NCBI GenBank assembly: GCA_002321305.1
Contig: DCMF01000098.1
Location: 28,976 to 92,975, forward strand
Source: Verrucomicrobia bacterium UBA1629
Lineage (GTDB): Bacteria; Verrucomicrobiota; Kiritimatiellia; RFP12; UBA1067
Reading direction: 5' to 3'
DNA length: 64,000 nucleotides
The translations under genes and the position numbers were made by a program. Under the pieces are notes generated by a model, which was not told the DNA's origin, made no database searches, and worked only from the letters and a program-made list of their open reading frames with translations. Shown piece by piece: positions 4,898 through 41,780 of the stretch. The number at the start of each line of letters is the position of its first letter. The stretch's first letter is position 1.

Positions 4898-6223
4898 TCA
4901 CGTGCAAGAGGGTGCCGAGAAAGTCGCGGCAAGGCGCCGAGCGAGGACGGGAAGTCCCGGGTCGCGGGCCCCGCATGTCACGAAGCATCCGAAGGCGCCG
5001 CGATGCGCCGCGCACCAGTCGAACGCCGCGTCGAGATCGGCGACCAGCCGTACGCGCGCGCCCGCCGCCGCGTCCGCGCGCGTCACCGCCGCAACGAGCG
5101 CGTCCGAGTTGATCGAGCGGTCGGTCGTTCCGCCCGCGTCGTAGACAGGCAGCAGCAGCAGCCGGTCCTGCGGACGAACCGTCTCCGCGAACATCGCCGC
5201 GAGCGCGTCCCTCATCTTCCTGAGCGGCGCGTAGCCATGCGGCCGCCAGATCGCGCAGACGCCCTGCGGATACCGCTCCGCCAGCGTCGTCCACATCGCC
5301 TTCAGCTTTTCCGGGTTGTGCGCGTAGTCGTCGTAGACGGCAGGTTCGGGAGGTTTGGAAGGTTTGGGAGGTTTGGAAGGTTCGGGAGGTTGGGGAGGTT
5401 GGGGAGGTTGGGGTGGGGTGATGAGCTGAAGGCGGCGCTCGACGCCACGGAAGGTCTTCATCGCGGCCACCGCATCGGACAGCTTCACGCCCAGAGCGAC
5501 CGCCATGCGCACCGCCAACTCGGCATTCTGCCGATTGTGCCGCCCCGGTACCGGCACTTCCAAACCTTCCAAACCTCCCGAACCTTCCAAACCGCCAAAC
5601 ACTTTCCTCCCATCCACCACCGGACCCTTGCAGCCTTTCACGAACGCATCGAAGACCGCATCCATCTCCTCCTTCGAGTAGTGGTCGGCGGAGGCGTTCG
5701 TGACAATGGCCGCATAGGGGCTGAAGGCGACGAGCGACTTGTCGCTCTCGTCCACCTCGGCGACGGCGAAGGCTCCGCGCCCGAAGCGCACCGCGCCCTC
5801 CCAGCCGGGCACGTTCGCGCCGTTCACGCACATCGGGTCCAGCCCACAGGACGCGAGGACGTGTCCGAGCATCGCCGTCACCGTCGACTTGCCGCAAGTG
5901 CCGACGACGGCGACGAGGCGATAGTCCCGAAGGGCGCGCGCAAGGGCCTTGGCGCGGTGCGTGACGGGAATGCCGAGCGCCTGCGCCTTTCGCAGCCCGG
6001 CGTTCGTCGGCTCAATGGCCGTCGAGACGATCACCTCGTCCGTCGCCGCATCGACGCCGCTGCCGTCGTCGGGAAAGACCTTCACGCCGAGCGATTCGAG
6101 AAACCGGACGTTCGGCGTGTCGCGTGTGCGATCCGCGCCCGTCACCCCGTCGCCCGACCGCACGAGCGCCGTCGCGAGCGCGCTCATGCCCACGCCGCCA
6201 ATGCCAATCAGATGCCGCTTCAT
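4898..6223 (-). CDS. murC: UDP-N-acetylmuramate--L-alanine ligase MurC. It carries two low-complexity in-frame insertions (GLEGSGGLEGLE and PPQPPQPPQPPEPSKPPKPSKPPEP).
   Basis: N-terminal IGIGGVGMSALA, Mur ligase motif VGTCGKST, and GRHNRQNAELAV. Confidence 0.85.
   Translation of the reverse strand: MKRHLIGIGGVGMSALATALVRSGDGVTGADRTRDTPNVRFLESLGVKVFPDDGSGVDAATDEVIVSTAIEPTNAGLRKAQALGIPVTHRAKALARALRDYRLVAVVGTCGKSTVTAMLGHVLASCGLDPMCVNGANVPGWEGAVRFGRGAFAVAEVDESDKSLVAFSPYAAIVTNASADHYSKEEMDAVFDAFVKGCKGPVVDGRKVFGGLEGSGGLEGLEVPVPGRHNRQNAELAVRMAVALGVKLSDAVAAMKTFRGVERRLQLITPPQPPQPPQPPEPSKPPKPSKPPEPAVYDDYAHNPEKLKAMWTTLAERYPQGVCAIWRPHGYAPLRKMRDALAAMFAETVRPQDRLLLLPVYDAGGTTDRSINSDALVAAVTRADAAAGARVRLVADLDAAFDWCAAHRGAFGCFVTCGARDPGLPVLARRLAATFSAPSCT
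5340..5418. repeat. Family A 9-bp tandem array (GGAGGTTTG/GAAGGTTTG units) inside murC. It encodes a PPQ/PPE/PSK tract.
   Basis: ggaggtttggaaggtttgggaggtttggaaggttcgggaggttggggaggttggggaggttgggg. Confidence 0.8.
5558..5600. repeat. Family A array in inverted orientation (CCAAACCTTCC units) inside murC. It encodes GGLEGSGGLEGLE.
   Basis: ccaaaccttccaaacctcccgaaccttccaaaccgccaaac is the reverse complement of the 5340-5418 array. Confidence 0.8.
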
Positions 6224-6262: not shown

Positions 6263-8845
6263 TTACAGGCTTCTCGGCAGCTCCTCCAGCGAGTAGCACT
6301 CGATCGTGTCGCCGACCTGGAAGCCCTCGTAGTTCGCGAAGCACACGCCGCATTCCTGCTGGCCCGTCACTTCCTTCACCTCGTCCTTGAAGTGGCGCAG
6401 CGTCTGCACCTTGCCGTCCCACACCTGCGCCTTGCTGCGGAGGATGCGGAAGCGCTCCTTGGCGACGAGCTTGCCGTCGAGCATCTGCGAGCCGGCGATC
6501 TTGCCGAGCTTGCCGATGTCGTAGATCGCCTTGATCTCGGCGTGGCCGAGGACGACTTCCTTGTACTCCGGCGGCAGCAGGTCGAGCATGCAGTTCTTGA
6601 CGTGATCCAGGAGCTCGTAGATGATGCGGAAGGAGTTGATCCGGACGCCGTCGTGGCGCGCCTGCTGCTGGACGCCCGAGTCGTTGCCGATGTCGAAGCC
6701 GACGAGGATCGCCTTGCCGGCGGCGGCGGACTTGACGTCCGTCAGCGAGACGTTGCCCGTGCCCGTGCCGATGATGTTCAAGGCCACCTTCTCGGACTTG
6801 ATCTCGTTCAGCGCCTGCACGATCGCCTCCAGCGAACCCTGCGTGTCGGACTTCACGATCACGTTGAGCTCGCGCTTGCCCTCGGCGGCCATCGCGCTCA
6901 TGAGCGCGTCGAGCGTCGCGGCCTTCGAGGTCGAGAGGGCCTCCTCCTTCTTCTCCTGCGCGGTCTGCTCGGCGAGCGTGCGCGCGCGCTTCTCGTCCAG
7001 CATGACGCGGAACTCGCTGCCGGCCTCCGGCACGCCCGACAGGCCCGTGCACTTCACCGGCGTCGCCGGCGGGGCCTCCTTGATGCGGCGGCCGTGGTCG
7101 TCGATGAGCGCGCGCACCTTGCCGAAATGCTCGCCGATGAGGATCGCGTCCCCGACCTTGAGCGTGCCGCCCGTGACGAGCAGCGTCGCGCACGGGCCAA
7201 GGCCCTGCTGCAGCTCGGACTCGATCACGAAGCCGTTCGCGCGGCGGTTCGGGTTCGCCTGGAGCTCCAGCACCTCCGCCTGCACGAGGATGTTCTCCAG
7301 GAGCGCGTCCACGCCGAGGCCCGTCACGCCCGAGACGGGGCAGCAGATGATGTCGCCGCCCCAGTCCTCCGGCGTCAGGCCCCGCTTCTGGAGCTGCTGC
7401 TTGACGCGATCGACGTTCGCCGTCGGCTTGTCGGCCTTCGTGATCGCGACCATGATCTGCACGCCCGTCTGGCGGCAGACCTTGATGCACTCCTCGGTCT
7501 GCGGCATGATGCCGTCGTCGGCCGCCACGATGAGGACGGCGATGTCGGTGATCTGCGCGCCGCGCGCACGCATCGCGCTGAACGCGGCGTGTCCGGGCGT
7601 GTCGAGGAACGTGATCTTCTTGCCCGCGATCTCGACCTGGTAGGCGGAGATCTGCTGGGTGATGCCGCCGGCCTCGCCCGCCGCGACATGCTCCTTGCGG
7701 ATGTAGTCCATCAGCGTCGTCTTGCCGTGGTCGACGTGGCCGAGGAACGTGACGACCGGCGCGCGCGGCTTCAGCGTCTCGGGCGGATCCTCCGGAATGA
7801 GGTCGTCCGCGTCGATCGCCTTCAGGACGGGCTTCGCCGCCGCCTTGTCGCGGGCGTGCTCGATCGTCACCTTGAAGCCGTACTTCTCCGCGACCTTCGT
7901 CGCGACGTCCGGCTCGACGCGCTGGTTGATGGACGCGAGGACCTTCAGCCCCATCAGGTCGGCGATGAGGCGGTTCGGCTTGATGTTGAGCTTCGCCGCG
8001 AGATCCTTCACGACCACCGCGCCGCGGATCGAGATCTCCTTGTTCGCCTCGTCCACGGAAATGCGGCTGCCCTGCTCCATCACCTTCGGCGCCACCACGC
8101 GCGGCGCGCCCTTGTCGAGGCCCTTGCCGCCGTCGCGGTCCTTCCGGCCCCTGCCGCCGTCACGCCCGGCGACGCCCACGGAAATCGTCGGCTTCGGCGG
8201 CTTCGGCTTCGGGGCGGCCGCGACGGAAATCGAGATCGTCGCCGCCGGCCGCGCGTGCTGAAGCGGACGGAACCCGGCCGCCGTCAGCCCCGTCTTCGCG
8301 GCGGAGATCGTCGGAATGACCTTCGGCTTCACGCCCGGCGCCATGCGGATCTTGGGCGTTGAGGGTTGAGTGGTGAGAGGTGAGGGATGAGAAGTGAGGG
8401 GTGAGGGATGAGAAGTGAGGGGTGAGGGGGAAGGGGTTGGAGAGGGCGGCGCCTCTCGCGTCCCTTCCGTCCCTCTCGTCACGGCAGCGGCAGCCGCCGC
8501 CGGAGCCGCCGTCGCCGCGGCCTTGAACGCCTTGCCTTCCGCCGCGTCCTTCGCGATCTTCAGGTGTTCGGCGAGCTTCGCCTTCTGCGCGGCGAAGAAC
8601 GCGGCGTTCAGGTCGGCCACGCGCTTCGCCTTGGCGGCGCGCGCCGCCGCGACGTCGGCCTTCGGCGCGTTCGCGAGCGCCAGCCTGAGCGCGGCGAGTT
8701 CGCCGTCCTCGACCGCGCTGATCGCGCTTGTGACCTCGACGCCGGCCTTTTCGGCCACGCGCAGCACCTCGGCGCTCGTGACGCCCGCCTCCTTGGCAAT
8801 TTCACAGACTCTCATGGGTTCAGCCTTCCTCTCCCTCGTGCGCAT
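6263..8845 (-). CDS. infB: Translation initiation factor IF-2. The start is possibly at Met11 (8815). It contains an in-frame heptad repeat insertion, SHPSPLT x3.
   Basis: N-terminal MRVCEIAKEAGVTSAEVLRV and G-domain VVTFLGHVDHGKTTLMDYIR...DTPGHAAF. Confidence 0.95.
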   Translation of the reverse strand: MRTRERKAEPMRVCEIAKEAGVTSAEVLRVAEKAGVEVTSAISAVEDGELAALRLALANAPKADVAAARAAKAKRVADLNAAFFAAQKAKLAEHLKIAKDAAEGKAFKAAATAAPAAAAAAVTRGTEGTREAPPSPTPSPSPLTSHPSPLTSHPSPLTTQPSTPKIRMAPGVKPKVIPTISAAKTGLTAAGFRPLQHARPAATISISVAAAPKPKPPKPTISVGVAGRDGGRGRKDRDGGKGLDKGAPRVVAPKVMEQGSRISVDEANKEISIRGAVVVKDLAAKLNIKPNRLIADLMGLKVLASINQRVEPDVATKVAEKYGFKVTIEHARDKAAAKPVLKAIDADDLIPEDPPETLKPRAPVVTFLGHVDHGKTTLMDYIRKEHVAAGEAGGITQQISAYQVEIAGKKITFLDTPGHAAFSAMRARGAQITDIAVLIVAADDGIMPQTEECIKVCRQTGVQIMVAITKADKPTANVDRVKQQLQKRGLTPEDWGGDIICCPVSGVTGLGVDALLENILVQAEVLELQANPNRRANGFVIESELQQGLGPCATLLVTGGTLKVGDAILIGEHFGKVRALIDDHGRRIKEAPPATPVKCTGLSGVPEAGSEFRVMLDEKRARTLAEQTAQEKKEEALSTSKAATLDALMSAMAAEGKRELNVIVKSDTQGSLEAIVQALNEIKSEKVALNIIGTGTGNVSLTDVKSAAAGKAILVGFDIGNDSGVQQQARHDGVRINSFRIIYELLDHVKNCMLDLLPPEYKEVVLGHAEIKAIYDIGKLGKIAGSQMLDGKLVAKERFRILRSKAQVWDGKVQTLRHFKDEVKEVTGQQECGVCFANYEGFQVGDTIECYSLEELPRSL
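8355..8445. repeat. Family C heptamer minisatellite in frame in infB. 3 x 7 bp gives a 7-aa period, producing SPLTSHP repeats.
   Basis: ggttgagtggtgagaggtgagggatgagaagtgaggggtgagggatgagaagtgaggggtgagggggaaggggttgg. Confidence 0.8.
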
Positions 8846-22470: not shown

Positions 22471-25734
<3,264 letters not shown>

Positions 25735-26513
25735 TTTCGATCATTTCCTCAAAAGGTTTCAGAAGGCCAAGAATTGGTCAGAAAGCCAAGAATTGGGAAG
25801 TTAGAAAGTGGTATGAAGCGTGGCATGAAGAGTTATATGAAGAGTTGTATGAAATGAAGGCGAGAAGTTAAGGCGAGAAGTTAAGGCTAGACATATAAGA
25901 CTAGAAATTAAAGCAAGAAGTTAAGGCAAGACATAAAGGCTAGAAGTTAAGGCTAGAAGTTTCTGAAAGCTTGATTTTTATTTTGCCATTCGACGGACTC
26001 ATTCCCGCTGCGCGTCCATTCGTCCGTCGCGGCGCGGCGGTTGGACGGACGGGCAGGCATCTGCACACGCCCGTTCCCGCTGCGCGTCCATTCGTCCGTC
26101 GGCAACAGCACGGCGGCGCGGGCCGGGAATCAGGCCGTCTTTCAGGGGGCGCCGCACGTCGACCGTCGCACGAGCGGACGCGCAGCGGGAGTGAGTGCGA
26201 CGGCTGATGAACTTACCTTCCGTCATCTGGCCTCTCCCCTGTCATCTGGTCTCTCCCCGATCATCTGACCTCTGGTCTCTCCCCAGTCATCTGGTCTCTT
26301 CCCAGTCATTTGACCGCTGGACTCTTCCCTGTCATTTGACCTCTTCTCAATCATTTGATCTCTTTCCTCCTTCTCGTCTTCTTCTCCCTCCTTCTCTCTT
26401 CTTCTACCTTCATCTACCCGTCGTCTCTCCGCTTCCCCTTCGCCCTTCCTCTTGTCGCCCCCTCTTCTTTCGGCATCCTCTCCGCCTGCTGAGATCCGCT
26501 TTTCGTCCTCCCT
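25735..26513. repeat. 779-bp intergenic region upstream of uvrA with four distinct repeat blocks. They are paired CCAAGAATTGG boxes, a purine-rich tandem array (AAGGCGAGAAGTT units, about 25850-25965), two 28-bp direct repeats embedded in hairpins (26002-26029 and 26074-26101), and a pyrimidine-rich tandem array (GTCATCTGGTCTCTCCCC units, about 26220-26340).
   Basis: Read directly from the sequence. No convincing ORF, tRNA or CRISPR structure is present. Confidence 0.7.
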
Positions 26514-29003: not shown

Positions 29004-29125
29004 GATGAGATGTGAGAGGTGAGGGATGAGATGTGAGAAGTGAGGGATGAGGGATGGGAGGTGAGAAGTGAGGGATGAGAGGTGGGAGGTGAGAAGTGAG
29101 GGGTGGGAGGTGAGGGATGGGGTGT
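29004..29125. repeat. Family C heptamer minisatellite (GTGAGGG / ATGAGAA / GTGGGAG units), intergenic between rho and coaE.
   Basis: gatgagatgtgagaggtgagggatgagatgtgagaagtgagggatgagggatgggaggtgagaagtgagggatgagaggtgggaggtgagaagtgaggggtgggaggtgagggatgggg. Confidence 0.8.
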
Positions 29126-29805
29126 CAGGAATGGCGTGTGAGCCATGTCAGGAATTTTTTAACTTCTTCTTTCAGTTCTTCGGGTGTGCCGTCGTTGTGA
29201 ATCACGTAGTGGGATTTGGCGGCCTTCTCCGCAACCGGCATCTGCGCCGCCAGTCGGGCCTCGGCCTCTGCGCGCGTGTAGCCGCGCGTCGTCATCATCC
29301 GCGAGATCTGCGTTTCCCTCTCGGAGACGACGCAGCATATTATATCAAAATTTTTCTCCCAGTGTGCTTCGAAGAGGAGAGGGATGATGGCGAGGCGAAA
29401 GTTTGGGACGTTTGGGAGGTTTGGAAGGTTCGGGTGGTTGGGGAGGTTTTTTTGGGGGGGTAAAGGATGGGAAGATTTGAAAAACGTGTGACCAGAACCC
29501 CTTCCTGCACAGTTCCTATCTAGACTTTCCAAACCTTCCAAACCTCCCAAACCTCCCAAACTTTCCGAACCTTCCAGAAATTCCTCAATCCTTTCCTTCA
29601 CAACCGGATGAAGCTTCGCTTCGAGTGCGCGGCGCTTCGCGGGGTCGGAAAAGACTTCGGCGGCGAGGCGTTTGCGCTCCGCCGGATCGGGAATCAGCTC
29701 ATGCACGATGTCGTCGGCGTCAATCGTCTCGACGCCGAAGTCGTTCAAGAAACGGGCAACGAGCGATTTGCCGCACGCAATGCCACCTGTCAAGCCTATT
29801 CTCAT
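29125..29805 (-). CDS. coaE: Dephospho-CoA kinase CoaE. It carries a roughly 60-aa in-frame insertion derived from a family A inverted-repeat element.
   Basis: MRIGLTGGIACGKS Walker A, with C-terminal CoaE homology resuming at RLAIIPLLFE. The insert is LEGSESLGGLGGLEGLESLDRNCAGRGSGHTFFKSSHPLPPQKNLPNHPNLPNLPNVPNF. Confidence 0.85.
   Translation of the reverse strand: MRIGLTGGIACGKSLVARFLNDFGVETIDADDIVHELIPDPAERKRLAAEVFSDPAKRRALEAKLHPVVKERIEEFLEGSESLGGLGGLEGLESLDRNCAGRGSGHTFFKSSHPLPPQKNLPNHPNLPNLPNVPNFRLAIIPLLFEAHWEKNFDIICCVVSERETQISRMMTTRGYTRAEAEARLAAQMPVAEKAAKSHYVIHNDGTPEELKEEVKKFLTWLTRHS
29396..29585. mobile_element. Family A MITE-like element inside coaE. Terminal inverted arrays of GGTTTGGAAGG units flank a roughly 60-bp unique core.
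   Basis: Left arm gtttgggacgtttgggaggtttggaaggttcgggtggttggggagg. Right arm ccaaaccttccaaacctcccaaacctcccaaactttccgaaccttcc. The core does not encode CoaE-like sequence. Confidence 0.55.
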
Positions 29806-29834: not shown

Positions 29835-30040
29835 AACACAGAGCCGCTTCGCGGGGCGATTGGAGAGATCGTGGGATTCGCTTCGCACCCCTTCGATCTC
29901 GTGATTCGCCCCGCCCATCAATTCTTTTGAATCAGGGGATTTCCTCCGTTTCGCTTCACCCGATACGCAAGAACATTCGCTGAATGCGCGGAGCGAACAT
30001 CCCGCGACACTCACATTGCCCCGCGAAGCGGCTCTGTGTT
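29835..30040. other. 206-bp element bounded by perfect 22-bp inverted repeats (AACACAGAGCCGCTTCGCGGGG / CCCCGCGAAGCGGCTCTGTGTT) in the coaE upstream region. It may be a MITE or a long closed-helix ncRNA.
   Basis: Arms at 29835-29856 and 30019-30040. The interior has partial further complementarity (gatcgtgggattcgc with gcgaacatcccgcgac). No ORF. Confidence 0.35.
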
Positions 30041-35571: not shown

Positions 35572-37169
35572 TTGAACTTCATCTCCACCGTGAATTGTTC
35601 GACCTGCGCGTCCTTGCCCAGCGCGCTCATGTCCGAAATCTTGACCGTGTCGGCGTCAATGCAGGGCCGCCCCTTGAGCTTGTCGACGACAAGCTCGCCC
35701 GGCGTCTTGCCGCCCTGGCCCTTCACGCGGTCGCTCCAGTAGCGCACCGTCAGGCGCCCGTCGTCCCAGCGCTCGATCCACATGCCGGGCAGCAGGGAGT
35801 CGCGCACCGCGTTGACGCGCTGCGCGGCGGCCGCGCGCGCGACGAGCAGCTTGCGCAGCGACTCGGCCTCGGCCTCGGCGGCCGCGAACTTCTCCGTCGC
35901 CGCCTGGACCTTGCGGTCGGACGCCGTCAGCGTCGCGACCTGCGCCTGCACGGCGTCGCGCTGCGCGGCGACGACCTCCTCCTGACGGCCGATCCCCAGC
36001 ATCACGCAGACGAGCGCCGCGACGAGCGTCACGCCGGCCGCGATGACGAACGGGATCTTGGCCTTCTCGGCCCGCGCCGCGACAAGCGACGGCGGCAGCA
36101 GGTTGATCGCGAAGCGCGCCGCGCCCGCCTCGTGCAGGGCGAGGCCCGCCGTGACGGCGATGAGCGCGCCGTCCGCCTCCAGCGCGGCCGCATCGACCTT
36201 CGGGCCGACGGCCAGCGCCTCGAACGGATTGAAGAACACGACCTCGATCTGGAGCGACTCCTGGAAGAAGACGTCGATCTGCGGCAGGAGGGCCGTGCCG
36301 CCCGTCAGGTAGAGGCGCGTCGGCGCCGTGCCGCCCTGCTGGCTGCGGTAGAAGTTGATCGAGCGCGAGATCTCGGCGTTGAGGCGCGTCATCACCGCGC
36401 GGCAGGCCTTCGAGATCCGGTCGGCGACCTCGTCGTCGTCCTCCGTCACGCCGCCCATCGAGACGTAGCCCTTCTCGCGCTTGAGCTGTTCGGCCTCCTC
36501 GGTCGTGCAGCCGAGCGCGGCGGCGATCTCCTTCGTCACGGCGTTGCCCGCGACGGGGATCGAGCGGTTGTAGATCTTGTCGCCCTCGACGATCACGAGC
36601 GACGTCGTCTTCGAGCCGATGTCGAGGAGGACGCTGCACGAGCCGTCGTCGCCGATCGCGTGGCGCAGGGCGTTCGTGAGCGCGAGCGGCGCGGCGTCGA
36701 CGAGCTCCGGCGTGAAGCCGGCGGCCGCGACGGCCGTCGTCAGCGCCTCGACCTGGTCGACCTTCGCGGCGACGATCATCACCGACTTGTCGCCCGTCTC
36801 CGTGTCGCCCAGCACCTGGCGGTCGCAGACGATCTCGTCGATCGGGAACGGGATGTTCTGCTCGATCTCGTAGCGCACCATCTGCTCGAACTTTTCCGCG
36901 CCGCCCGCCATCGGAATCGCGGCGAAGCGCGGGAAGACCATCTGGCCGGAGATGGCGAGCGCGATCTTGCCGGGGCGGATGCCCTTCGTGCGCACGACCT
37001 CCTGGATCGCGGGCGTGAGGATCGCGCCGGCGTCGCCGCCGTCCAGCGGCGCGGCAAGCGGCGCCGTGCCGTAGTTCACGAGCGTCAGCGCGCCTTTCGC
37101 GCCGGCCTCGTACTCGGCGAGCTCGATGTTGGCCGCGCCGATGTTGAGGGTTAGATATCGTTTAGCCAT
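35568..37169 (-). CDS. PilM-PilN fusion protein. An actin-like PilM ATPase-fold domain is followed by the PilN INLLP motif, a TM helix, a coiled coil and a periplasmic domain.
   Basis: The N-terminus LTLNIGAANIELAEY is PilM/FtsA-like. The internal sequence FAINLLPPSLVAARAEKAKIPFVIAAGVTLVAALVCVMLGIG carries the PilN signature and a TM helix. Confidence 0.8.
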   Translation of the reverse strand: MAKRYLTLNIGAANIELAEYEAGAKGALTLVNYGTAPLAAPLDGGDAGAILTPAIQEVVRTKGIRPGKIALAISGQMVFPRFAAIPMAGGAEKFEQMVRYEIEQNIPFPIDEIVCDRQVLGDTETGDKSVMIVAAKVDQVEALTTAVAAAGFTPELVDAAPLALTNALRHAIGDDGSCSVLLDIGSKTTSLVIVEGDKIYNRSIPVAGNAVTKEIAAALGCTTEEAEQLKREKGYVSMGGVTEDDDEVADRISKACRAVMTRLNAEISRSINFYRSQQGGTAPTRLYLTGGTALLPQIDVFFQESLQIEVVFFNPFEALAVGPKVDAAALEADGALIAVTAGLALHEAGAARFAINLLPPSLVAARAEKAKIPFVIAAGVTLVAALVCVMLGIGRQEEVVAAQRDAVQAQVATLTASDRKVQAATEKFAAAEAEAESLRKLLVARAAAAQRVNAVRDSLLPGMWIERWDDGRLTVRYWSDRVKGQGGKTPGELVVDKLKGRPCIDADTVKISDMSALGKDAQVEQFTVEMKFK

Positions 37170-37185
37170 AGGATTGAAGCCCTTG

Positions 37186-37270
37186 TTCCCGTCTGTCCTC
37201 CGCCTTCTGTCGCCTGTCCTTCGAGACGAGAGCGTTCAGGACAGCGGACAATGGACAAAAGACGAACGGG
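37186..37270. repeat. Family E imperfect palindromic element immediately upstream of the pilMN start. A related copy is at 41696-41780.
   Basis: cccgtctgtcctccgccttctgtcgcctgtccttcgagacgagagcgttcaggacagcggacaatggacaaaagacgaacggg. Confidence 0.6.
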
Positions 37271-37294
37271 GGTGTTCTCTCATTCGATCATTTC

Positions 37295-37999
37295 TTACTG
37301 CATCGTCGTCTCGTAGTCGTTCGGGTTCACGAGCGCCCAGATCGTCTTCGAGCGATCGACGAGGCCCTGACGGCGCTCGACCATCGGCTTGCCGCCCTGC
37401 TGCGCGTTCATGATGTTCTGGTCGTCCCAGAACTGCGAGTCGGCCTTGATGCCCTTGATCTCGCTCACGGTGCCGCCGCCGAGGACGTCGCCGTTCTGGT
37501 TCGACACCGTGAAGCCGATCGCCTTGGGCTCGCCGTAGAGCTCCAGGTAGGACGGCGGCAGGCAGACGCACGCGGCGTGCGAACCCTGCGGGATGTTGTA
37601 GTAGGTCACGGTCGTGTTGAAGTAGCTGTACGGCGGCAGGCCCATCTTGTTGCCCTTGTTCTCCTTCGCGCTCTTCGTCTCCAGCATCACGTGCCAGGTG
37701 AACGTGAGCTGGTCGAGGAACTTCGCGTAGGTCGTGTACTTCGTCTCGATCACGATCCACTTGCGCGGCTTCGTGTAGCAGTTGCCGATCATCGTCGCGC
37801 CCTGGATGGACGGCGCGGGCAGACAGCTCGACTGGCCCGTTTTCGGCATCTGGTCGATGAGGATCTTCGCCTCCTTGCCCGTCGTCACGGGACCGTCCTC
37901 GTTGCCGGCCATCGCCTGGACGCCCTTCTTTGTGCGCGGCGCCGCAACCGCCGCCGCGACCGCCACCATCGCCACCGTCATAACCATCAGCTTCTTCAT
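37295..37999 (-). CDS. Secreted hypothetical protein (signal peptide MKKLMVMTVAMVAVAAAVAA). Function unknown.
   Basis: 234 aa. Start at Met16 of the track ORF, with AAAGGAAC upstream. No recognisable domain. Confidence 0.55.
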   Translation of the reverse strand: MKKLMVMTVAMVAVAAAVAAPRTKKGVQAMAGNEDGPVTTGKEAKILIDQMPKTGQSSCLPAPSIQGATMIGNCYTKPRKWIVIETKYTTYAKFLDQLTFTWHVMLETKSAKENKGNKMGLPPYSYFNTTVTYYNIPQGSHAACVCLPPSYLELYGEPKAIGFTVSNQNGDVLGGGTVSEIKGIKADSQFWDDQNIMNAQQGGKPMVERRQGLVDRSKTIWALVNPNDYETTMQ

Positions 38000-38199: not shown

Positions 38200-39285
38200 T
38201 CACATCACCTTCATCTTCGGCAGGTCCTGGATGTCCACAAGCCCCACGATGCGGCCTTCCGCGTCGCAGACGGGCAGGTCGTCGATTCGCATCCTCTCGA
38301 AGATCTTCAGCAGCTCCGCCGCGTAGGCGTCGTCATGGACGAACTTGGGCGATTTCGTCATATGCTCGGCGACAGGCGCCGAGAGAATAATCGAATAATC
38401 GAATCGCCGAATCGTCGAATCGGGGGAAGTCTCCGAACCCGACGAAGCCCCCGTCTCTTCATTCATTCGATCATTCGACCATTCGTTCATTCGATTATTT
38501 TCCCGACTCATCACCCGCCGGAAGTCGCCGTCGGTGAAGATGCCGAGAAGCCGGCCCGCCGCATCGGCGACGACCGCCGCGCCGCCCTGCGCCTTCGTCA
38601 TCGCCATCACGGCCTCCATCACCGTCGCCGTCGGCGCGACCTTCGCGAGCCGGTCGCCCGTGCGCATGATGTCCGTCACCTTGAGGACAAGCGCACGGCC
38701 GATCGCGCCGGCCGGATGGTTCGCCGCGTAGTCCGCAAGCGAGAACTTCTGCGCGTCGATCATCACCATCGCGAGCGCGTCGCCCATCGCGAGCGTCGCC
38801 GTGACCGAGTTCGTCGGCGCCATGCCGAAGGGACACGCCTCCTTGCCGCAGGGAATCTCCACGTGCAGGTCGGCGAGCCGCGCGAGCGTCGACTGCGGAT
38901 TGCCCGTCAGCGCAATGACCTTCAGCCCGTGGCGGCGAATCGCCGGGATGAGCCGCACGACTTCCTCGGACTCGCCGCTGAACGAGAGCGCAATCAGCAG
39001 ATCGCGCGACGACACCATGCCGAGGTCGCCGTGCATCGCCTGCACGGGATTGAGGACGATCGAGCGCGTGCCCGTCGAGGCGAAGATCGCGCTCATCTTC
39101 TCCGCGACGTGCAGGTTCTTGCCGACGCCCGTGACGACGACGAGTCCGTCGTTCGCCACGCAGTCCCGCATGAGGCGGATGGCCGAGACGAACGATGCGC
39201 CGAGCGAGTCGCGGGTCTTCTTCAGACCCTCGATCTCGATGTCGAAGACTTGCTTCGCGCGCGTGATCATCTCGGTTTCGGTCAT
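38200..39285 (-). CDS. kdsD: Arabinose-5-phosphate isomerase (KdsD/KpsF type, SIS plus tandem CBS domains). It carries a family B in-frame insertion between the CBS domains.
   Basis: SIS region VVVTGVGKNLHVAEKMSAIFASTGTRSIVLNP...ALSFSGESEEV and CBS pairs. The insert is MSRENNRMNEWSNDRMNEETGASSGSETSPDSTIRRFDYSIILSA. Confidence 0.85.
   Translation of the reverse strand: MTETEMITRAKQVFDIEIEGLKKTRDSLGASFVSAIRLMRDCVANDGLVVVTGVGKNLHVAEKMSAIFASTGTRSIVLNPVQAMHGDLGMVSSRDLLIALSFSGESEEVVRLIPAIRRHGLKVIALTGNPQSTLARLADLHVEIPCGKEACPFGMAPTNSVTATLAMGDALAMVMIDAQKFSLADYAANHPAGAIGRALVLKVTDIMRTGDRLAKVAPTATVMEAVMAMTKAQGGAAVVADAAGRLLGIFTDGDFRRVMSRENNRMNEWSNDRMNEETGASSGSETSPDSTIRRFDYSIILSAPVAEHMTKSPKFVHDDAYAAELLKIFERMRIDDLPVCDAEGRIVGLVDIQDLPKMKVM
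38382..38504. repeat. Family B element in frame in kdsD.
   Basis: gagagaataatcgaataatcgaatcgccgaatcgtcgaatcgggggaagtctccgaacccgacgaagcccccgtctcttcattcattcgatcattcgaccattcgttcattcgattattttcc. Confidence 0.8.
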
Positions 39286-41695: not shown

Positions 41696-41780
41696 CCCGT
41701 CCCGTTTGTCCGCTGTCCTTTGCGCGCCGTCCTTCCTTCGAGAGCCTCGGACAGAGGACAGCCGACAGCGGACAAACAGG
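41696..41780. repeat. Family E palindromic element in the ackA leader, downstream of the giant gene stop.
   Basis: cccgtttgtccgctgtcctttgcgcgccgtccttccttcgagagcctcggacagaggacagccgacagcggacaaacagg. Confidence 0.6.

Follow-up and report, generated by a model that had tools for sequence, protein, structure and literature searches.

Long terminal inverted repeats built of short tandem repeats in variable copy number are known from the foldback (FB) transposons of Drosophila. [quoted passage not shown] Rickettsia palindromic elements (RPEs) are about 100-150 bp long and are found as in-frame inserts of unrelated housekeeping genes, where their positions suit the fold of the protein and they are translated into additional peptide segments (PMC10969869). 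Arrays of the heptamer GGGAATC in Xanthomonas form 70-75 close convergent pairs able to fold into stem-loops (Rehm et al. 2015, PMC4692102). The intervening sequence (IVS) with S23p in 23S ribosomal RNA (rRNA) is a selfish long-stem insertion that occupies a permissive site in the product of an essential gene, and its loop in some cases contains a small open reading frame (ORF) (Coxiella, PMC4990558). [quoted passage not shown] The present analysis concerns an insert of related form in coaE, the gene for dephospho-CoA kinase. The gene lies in a 64-kb piece (the window) of the 93-kb metagenome contig ERZ808281 NODE_34. The source is an uncultured gut member of Kiritimatiellae, and its nearest relatives in the collection are Kiritimatiellaeota/Kiritimatiellae metagenome-assembled genomes (MAGs) from the Hadza human gut and from ruminants. 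With a probability of about 60%, the segment in coaE is a selfish or neutral, gene-less foldback tandem-array repeat, translated as a passenger and belonging to families that colonise permissive loops and intergenic spacers. The coordinates of all inserts are given in Table 1.

The coaE insert is foreign, structured and repeated. Its arms are convergent arrays of the 9-bp unit GGTTYGGRA on either side of a 74-bp spacer. Tandem Repeats Finder (TRF) identified GTTTGGGAG in 5.4 copies (29401-29449) and TTCCAAACC in 5.6 copies (29527-29576). A repeat search paired 29397-29447 with 29524-29574 as inverted arms of 51 nt with 78% complementarity (best 37 nt, 95%) and 76 nt between them. The degenerate two-unit pattern GGTTYGGRAGGTTYGGRAGG, with at most 3 mismatches, has 18 matches in the window versus 0.06 expected; coaE and a murC-like gene, with two arrays each, account for all of them. 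On the sense strand the insert region folds with -88 kcal/mol (z = -7.7 versus shuffles). Its G+C content is 0.484, versus 0.572 for the remaining coaE and 0.657 for the window. No Rfam family reached its gathering score anywhere in the 64 kb. A first-pass annotation, made from the sequence alone, had described a MITE-like element in frame in coaE, with ends formed by inverted arrays of 9-bp units around a core of roughly 60 bp. Its coordinates and anatomy proved correct in every material respect by ORF call, TRF and inverted-arm search, the array ends by TRF and the repeat search; the core is indeed unrelated to CoaE but measures 74-76 bp.

Between EEFL and RLAI, the window coaE encodes 59 aa, compared with 7 aa (NRRTGDV) at the empty site of a close relative, a net gain of 52 aa. 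The encoded peptide includes the stretch LEGLESLDRNCAGR and contains no stop, in agreement with the straight read-through of about 60 residues proposed earlier. The Pfam CoaE match to the 226-aa ORF is split into separate stretches, and CoaE chains of the Protein Data Bank can be aligned to residues 3-78 and 140-223 only; the claim that a segment foreign to CoaE splits the fold is supported. An AlphaFold model based on 40 homologues gives predicted local distance difference test (pLDDT) values of 85-95 for the kinase core, while residues 82-128 have no secondary structure and a pLDDT <50. The insert is located between helix 55-78 and strand 137-140, and the model shows it as a disordered surface loop in an otherwise intact CoaE.

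The site was followed through relatives of the strain. Among the best 120 CoaE homologues the length varies from 175 to 273 aa, with all variation between HPxVKxRIEEFL and RLAIIPLLFE; the remainder is nearly invariant, and the CoaE motifs are all invariant. At the DNA level, coaE is in one frame without stops in 48 of 48 Kiritimatiellae genome representatives, most of which have 9-14 residues at the insert site and about ten of which have inserts of more than 20 aa. The filled sites are long hairpins with arms that are tandem arrays of differing units, namely GGTTTGGAA (window, L083, P0002, P0004), a purine-rich type, GGAAGAA (L002), AATAATCG (L003, L085), GGGACRRMC (L005, L009) and yet another type (L043). 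Folding z-scores are -4 to -8.5 at filled sites and -1.1 to +1.6 at sites with a short insert or none. In P0027/L082, a very close relative, the site is empty (FLNRRTGDVRLAV) within flanks that are about 95% identical. Comparison of the empty L082 allele with five filled alleles revealed no flanking direct repeat, hence no target-site duplication. In the filled alleles the insert stands in place of the native 21 nt that encode NRRTGDV, and from one allele to another the junctions differ by as much as about 12 nt. The syntenic strain contigs L083 and L085 are 97-99% identical to the window over most common stretches and 89-95% identical in some segments, and the homology breaks coincide with hairpin elements. 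Strains with flanks of 97-99% identity carry a 9-mer, 8-mer, purine-rich, other or no insert at the same coaE codons, and the copy number of the array varies between strains (9.6 versus 5.4 units). The first-pass annotation had asked for empty sites in related genomes, which exist in P0027/L082 and in many other Kiritimatiellae genomes. It had also named a conserved, ancient domain as the alternative; the coaE site is hypervariable instead.

Inserts of this kind are not restricted to coaE. At least seven in-frame hairpins of several unit families are present in four housekeeping genes of the window (one each in coaE, the murC-like gene and a KpsF-like gene, four in uvrA). On the sequence evidence, both their pervasiveness in housekeeping genes and their turnover between strains at fixed codons are clear. 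At uvrA site 1 the 9-mer units number 4 in L083 and 11.6 in L085, and at site 2 the family of L085 differs from that of the window and L083; sites 3 and 4 and the KpsF site are common to all three. Arrays are seen to change their length in 9-bp, frame-neutral steps, as judged from the aligned alleles. In genes, every third unit of the 8-mer arrays is altered so that the TAA of AATAATCG stays out of frame, a rule which an intergenic 8-mer copy in L083 does not follow. This avoidance of TAA in genes, together with the 48 open coaE loci, shows that the inserts are translated straight through and that frame and stop codons are under selection. The longest spanning ORF was tried as a classifier of genic and intergenic arrays and was discarded as uninformative at 66% G+C.

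The units are common to several loci, the spacers are not. The 9-mer units occur in coaE, murC and uvrA, and the 8-mer family at no fewer than five loci (at least 5). The order of unit variants is alike between the coaE, murC and uvrA arms (35/36 nt by eye), which is suggestive, with a chance agreement not negligible for only four unit variants. Comparison of spacers between different loci with the same arm family gave z-scores of at most 6.2, a residual signal from arm units left in the spacers; spacer homology was found only between orthologous sites (z 8-22). The 9-mer arm family is read as LPN in coaE, as KPP/SKP in murC and in uvrA of L083/L085, and as FQT/SQT in murC orthologues, and has thus no family-specific peptide. 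The 9-mer pattern was also found in foldbacks of unrelated G+C-poor and G+C-rich metagenome contigs. Contigs L123, L124, L142, L154 and L171 (VFQP01 contigs, G+C content 0.43-0.45) represent an unrelated low-G+C organism with long, mostly non-genic 9-mer foldbacks; these are composed of the units GGTTTGGGA/GGTTTGAAA/GGTTCAAGA, and their arms reach about 150 nt, their spacers being about 40-260 nt long. Phages as vectors were considered and rejected: the 9-mer was found on 7 and the 8-mer on 2 viral contigs, nearly always as solitary arrays.

In the murC-like gene the two arms enclose native sequence. The 140 bp between them encode VPVPGRHNRQNA...RGVERRLQLI, which can be aligned residue by residue to solved MurC structures. 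About 120 murC orthologues have many different peptide pairs at the two arm positions, for example GLEGLGSLEGL / SQTSKPSKP, NCSIVRLGDCSIERL / SIEQSNNPNNRTIEQS, EVEKLNVEKLK / STFQPFNSSTFQP and QVAGLQGCKVAELQ / KPCNLETLQPCNLETLKP. Three further orthologues, inspected as DNA, have the complementary arms AATTGTTCG, GTTGAAAAGTTGAA and GTTGCAGGGTTGCAAG, each of another unit family, around the same native 46-aa segment, and their hairpins have folding z-scores of -6 to -8.4. A back-translation test at the protein level, which has low power because shuffled repetitive peptides keep the null high, found complementary sites in 39 of 81 orthologues (p<=0.05). Outside this set some orthologues have mismatched families, and in 16 the second site is empty or shorter than 8 aa. 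On soil contig L134 the 9-mer arms enclose a hydrophobic stretch within an ORF of 461 aa; assignment of this ORF to zf-HC2 was rejected, since its 18 bits are below the Pfam cut-off of 22.2 bits. The same arms around native murC sequence, and unrelated complementary arms in the orthologues, cannot be explained by insertion of a single element. The evolving entity is thus the arms and not the arm-core-arm unit, with both arms renewed together. Compared with solved MurC, the murC-like ligase has about 45 residues fewer in its middle domain (query 186-222 versus about 83 residues); the gene (4898-6223) adjoins acyl-carrier-protein and lpxC genes.

In some relatives the loop between convergent arrays contains a gene. 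The secretin-coaE spacer of L085 carries a 121-aa GxxExxY/PDDEXK_3 (PD-(D/E)XK) gene (TIGR04256, 2.8e-42) between convergent CACGGATT arrays (L085 9391-10000), and the CACGGATT family is present in frame and with a short loop at murC site 1 of P0134/P0136. At the same spacer only the right-hand array is found in L083, and the spacer cannot be aligned between strains; upstream of coaE the window has a 31-nt inverted repeat (29835-29865 / 30010-30040, 90% complementary) around 144 bp. A 63%-identical GxxExxY gene elsewhere has CACGAATT arrays on its flanks, and a Bacteroidetes homologue lies amid repeated hairpins of the CACGAATT motif; CACGRATT arrays, a sister family of the 9-mer arms, occur on the flanks of GxxExxY genes in both Kiritimatiellae and Bacteroidetes. 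On contigs L212-L219 (another gut bacterium, with GxxExxY between epimerase and DegT genes) and L220-L227 (a low-G+C Bacteroidetes), the GxxExxY genes are flanked by or embedded in CCACGAATT-N-CACGAATT hairpins; the same arm motif accompanies the family across phyla. Many GxxExxY homologues come from contigs only 0.5-1.5 kb long, which would be the expected outcome if assemblies break at the flanking repeats. In the literature searched, GxxExxY is mentioned only incidentally. Soil contigs L120 and L172 (G+C content 0.70) have convergent GGTTYGGRA-pattern arrays on the flanks of a four-helix-bundle gene (TIGR02436, 9.3e-27), a family that represents the protein encoded in 23S rRNA IVSs (Coxiella IVS, PMC4990558). 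Neither the four-helix-bundle protein nor the GxxExxY protein is a known transposase.

Compared with the systems described above, the coaE element is closest in function to the RPEs, with which it has in common a palindromic insert in an open frame at a fold-compatible surface position. RPEs are palindromes of unique sequence with a conserved peptide per family, whereas the arms of the coaE type are arrays of 7-9-bp units read in differing frames. Their copy number is variable between strains, their families interchange at the same codons, and their arms can enclose native sequence. By its sequence logic, as seen from the comparison of units and frames, the coaE element is not an RPE. The Xanthomonas arrays are likewise dispersed tandem arrays of short units that pair convergently with the G-rich strand pointing inward. 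Arrays in Xanthomonas and Nostoc, however, are mostly intergenic (7-11% intragenic in Xanthomonas) and are discussed as formers of G-quadruplexes, and no in-frame inserts in essential genes are reported for them. In Kiritimatiellae the units have periods of 9, 8 and 7, G-quadruplexes cannot be formed by most families, and the replacement of alleles at strain level is new. The 9-mer-pattern arrays around the TIGR02436 gene of L120/L172 provide the likeness to the rRNA IVSs. Those are situated in rRNA and cut out by RNase III, while the coaE copy has no loop ORF, is in a protein gene and must be translated; its strict maintenance of frame argues against excision from the RNA, as far as can be judged from the alleles. 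MITEs and REPINs (Correia, ERIC, BOX, REP doublets) have a defined full-length consensus, usually have target-site duplications or an associated RAYT or other transposase, and are mainly extragenic; for the coaE element none of these was found, the gene maps of the contig having been examined for a transposase. Drosophila FB elements are eukaryotic, of kilobase scale and not in frame, so that the likeness is architectural only. Literature searches combining Kiritimatiellae/Kiritimatiellota with repeats, hairpins or in-frame insertions returned nothing relevant. The literature searched has no report of essential genes with in-frame tandem-array arms; the same applies there to families that replace one another at the same codons in near-identical strains, and to co-renewed arms around native coding segments.

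Table 1. Positions of inserts, arms and arrays in the window
Feature	Position	Strand	Remarks
coaE (dephospho-CoA kinase)	29125..29805	minus	intact 226-aa ORF carrying the insert; Pfam CoaE 2.8e-34
coaE insert, 5' arm (gene orientation)	29524..29585	minus	about 6 units GGTTTGGAA/GGTTTGGGA on the mRNA strand, read as LEGSESLGGLGGLEGLES
coaE foldback spacer (loop)	29450..29523	minus	unrelated to CoaE and to spacers elsewhere; homologue only in the L083 coaE spacer
coaE insert, 3' arm (gene orientation)	29397..29449	minus	about 5.4 units of CTCCCAAAC type, read as LPNHPNLPNLPNVPNF
murC-like gene (4898..6223), C-rich arm on mRNA	5338..5416	minus	9-mer family (PPQPPQPPQPPEPSKPPKPSKPPEP)
murC-like gene, enclosed segment (VPVPGRHN...RRLQLI)	5417..5556	minus	native Mur-ligase; aligns to MurC chains 4hv4 289-433 and E. 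coli 2f00 287-422
murC-like gene, G-rich arm on mRNA	5557..5604	minus	9-mer family (GGLEGSGGLEGLE)
uvrA insert site 1	25180..25305	minus	purine-rich 'SDV...RPS' hairpin; same codons occupied by the 9-mer family in L083 and L085
uvrA insert site 2	24748..24903	minus	in-frame foldback, 8-mer AATAATCG family
uvrA insert site 3	24025..24150	minus	in-frame GACGTGAGG-type hairpin, conserved in three strains
uvrA insert site 4	23446..23592	minus	in-frame foldback, 8-mer family; each third unit altered, TAA never in frame
SIS/CBS (KpsF-like) gene (38200..39285), insert	38380..38505	minus	in-frame foldback, 8-mer family
IF-2 N-terminal region, array	8360..8437	minus	solitary in-frame 7-mer (TGAGGGG-type, TGAGGGATGAGAAGTGAGGGG), 3.3 copies of a 21-nt superperiod; encodes SPSPLTSHPSPLTSHPSPLT

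Among the alternative explanations, purely local growth without any mobility would begin with a native inverted repeat or microsatellite and proceed by slippage and templated correction, like units at different loci being due to convergence or ectopic conversion. Growth in place would account for the arms around native segments (murC, L134), for the absence of a target-site duplication, for arms that are unequal and for the existence of hotspots. The rnpB helix P12 of cyanobacteria, said by Vioque in 1997 to be lengthened by tandem heptamers at a fixed site, would be a parallel case. Foldback-templated inverted insertions are also documented for yeast (PMC11724301). Local growth is nevertheless an unlikely explanation, given the identical 9-mer family at three loci of a single genome, the 8-mer family at no fewer than five loci, the 9-mer pattern in foldbacks of unrelated G+C-poor and G+C-rich contigs and around the four-helix-bundle gene, and the exchange of whole families at one site between strains of 97-99% identity.

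A classical MITE, non-autonomous, moving by cut-and-paste or copy-and-paste and inserted once into coaE, with terminal inverted repeats bound by a transposase encoded elsewhere, is unlikely as well. The earlier label MITE-like is justified insofar as the element has inverted ends, is small, has no gene of its own, exists in several copies and is present or absent among strains, with empty sites in relatives. Subterminal arrays of short repeats are also the transposase-binding sites of some eukaryotic elements (foldback, hAT, CACTA). The label fails in that there is no target-site duplication, the native loop being replaced and not split, and no core shared between loci. In addition, the arms can enclose native coding sequence, their copy number varies freely and they are often unequal, and no transposase is among the called genes in the contig gene maps.

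The hairpins could also be maintained as a selected nucleic acid structure, either as a stem in the messenger RNA (an RNase III site, a ribosome pause at a domain boundary or a control of decay) or in the DNA. The very stable folds (z -6 to -8.5) would agree with this, as would the pairing around the murC segment, which persists while the arm sequence is replaced. Selection for a stem in mRNA should enrich G·U pairs. When 28 arm pairs were aligned on the sense strand over 1043 positions, G·U accounted for 33 of the mismatches, A·C for 53 and transversions for 76, figures that are indicative and not strict; with no excess of G·U over A·C, the complementarity of the arms would best be explained by copying at the DNA level. 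Moreover, close strains lack the coaE hairpin or have it in other lengths, about half of the tested murC orthologues have no complementary pair, and no Rfam family matches. Selection for such a structure is therefore held to be improbable.

An intragenic inverton, in which the arms serve as recombination sites and a programmed inversion recodes or switches off the gene, is very improbable. Intragenic invertons are known in gut Bacteroidales, and inverted repeats around a short intragenic segment of a gut bacterium would suit them. In silico inversion of the coaE spacer, however, creates an in-frame stop, the orientation of the spacer is the same in the window and L083, inversion of the murC segment would destroy a conserved motif, and no recombinase is among the called genes of two contig stretches that span 1-35,734 of the window and so reach about 23 kb from coaE in one direction and about 6 kb in the opposite one. 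An assembly or amplification artefact, for which inverted repeats are a known signature as chimeric inverted duplications, is effectively refuted by the identical protein on three contigs, the record of the contig for two samples, and related in-frame alleles in many independent assemblies and MAGs.

For the preferred reading, a gene-less foldback repeat that spreads as a translated passenger, the following course might be envisaged. Replication slippage would change the length of the arrays, and one arm would be copied from the other in the DNA, by intrastrand template switching or quasi-palindrome correction, instead of being shaped by selection of an RNA stem. A family would reach new loci by being copied there, by way of templated insertion or ectopic conversion and with no target-site duplication. 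Hairpins already present would be the preferred sites of landing or renewal, which would turn a few codon positions into hotspots with many alleles. Mobilisation in trans by small proteins encoded in the loops of full-length relatives (the four-helix-bundle/S23p protein, the GxxExxY PD-(D/E)XK nuclease) is speculative. Selection would act as a filter only, such that in essential genes the in-frame, stop-free insertions in surface loops survive. The arrays also have a polarity. In 387 kb of Kiritimatiellae DNA the 5' arm of paired arrays has more G than C in 16 of 18 cases and less in none; on 120 metagenome contigs with the 9-mer pattern, 103 arrays are solitary, 15 have a partner downstream and 2 upstream. 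This polarity could arise if the G-rich strand were added to the 3' ends to either side of a break, or through a filter against a C-rich, Rho-loading RNA arm that would be exposed before its partner is transcribed.

Several points weigh against this reading. No enzyme, target-site duplication or conserved core was found for the element, and mobility between loci is deduced only from common unit sequences. Where arms flank native sequence, as in murC and L134, a further process is required in addition to the insertion. The copies pooled in the mismatch test are not independent, being partly orthologous. The TGTCC/GGACAG hairpins (e.g. 41701-41780) break the polarity rule, and the insert may have a regulatory or protein-level role. 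With a hidden Markov model of GxxExxY, based on 120 homologues, the L085/L086 copy was the sole hit in 1.33 Mb, versus dozens of hairpins; with this one copy a general linkage of hairpins and GxxExxY was rejected, and this rarity makes the link to loop genes a lead and not a demonstration. According to a wider proposal, to be taken as tentative and rather doubtful, there may be an unrecognised, cross-phylum, 'stem-building' class of selfish elements of which the coaE insert would be the smallest form. Convergent arrays would be the cis-sites of this class, its full-length members would have tiny genes in the loop (four-helix-bundle/S23p, GxxExxY PD-(D/E)XK nuclease), and its propagation would place complementary arrays around any tolerated segment. 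Such a class would unify 23S rRNA IVSs, rnpB STRR helices, the heptamer pairs of Xanthomonas and in-frame hairpins, including arms around native segments that are renewed together.

Further repeats were observed in the neighbourhood. From the coaE stop (29125) to the rho start (29003) extends a spacer of 121 nt, which consists nearly completely of a 7-mer array at 29006-29114 (TGAGRGG, 28-nt superperiod, 15.6 copies). On the mRNA strand this array reads (CCYCTCA)n and is C-rich with almost no G, immediately upstream of the rho start; it could be a candidate rut-like autoregulatory site. The spacer is 86 nt long in L083 and 100 nt in L085. Both of these strains have an extra 3-kb gene with a Flg_new domain between rho and a HEAT-repeat gene, which the window lacks. 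Upstream of uvrA, the non-coding region 25851-26418 contains eight copies of the 13-mer AAGGCTAGAAGTT, 19/45-mer units, four copies of CTTCTTCTAC and a 39-nt inverted repeat (25991-26029 / 26164-26202). The TGTCC/GGACAG 7-mer hairpins (37140-37300, 41701-41780) lie beside gene ends with the C-rich arm first, opposite in polarity to the other families, and may be terminators. In the Amuc_1102-PilM spacer, L083 has an 8-mer AATAATCG foldback in place of a TGTCC/GGACAG hairpin.

Gene callers and alignment-based tools will misread such inserts as low-complexity domains or divergent proteins. If the reading given here is true, the inserts would be strain-typing markers of very high resolution and a natural map of permissive loops in conserved enzymes. 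They would provide a system for the study of how palindromes escape surveillance by hairpin cleavage and mismatch repair, and of how two arms are renewed jointly around native sequence. The link of the arms to four-helix-bundle (rRNA-IVS) and GxxExxY genes would offer a testable function for two very large families of unknown role. Gut Kiritimatiellae would tolerate long, near-perfect hairpins in essential genes, and these would turn over between strains that are 97-99% identical.

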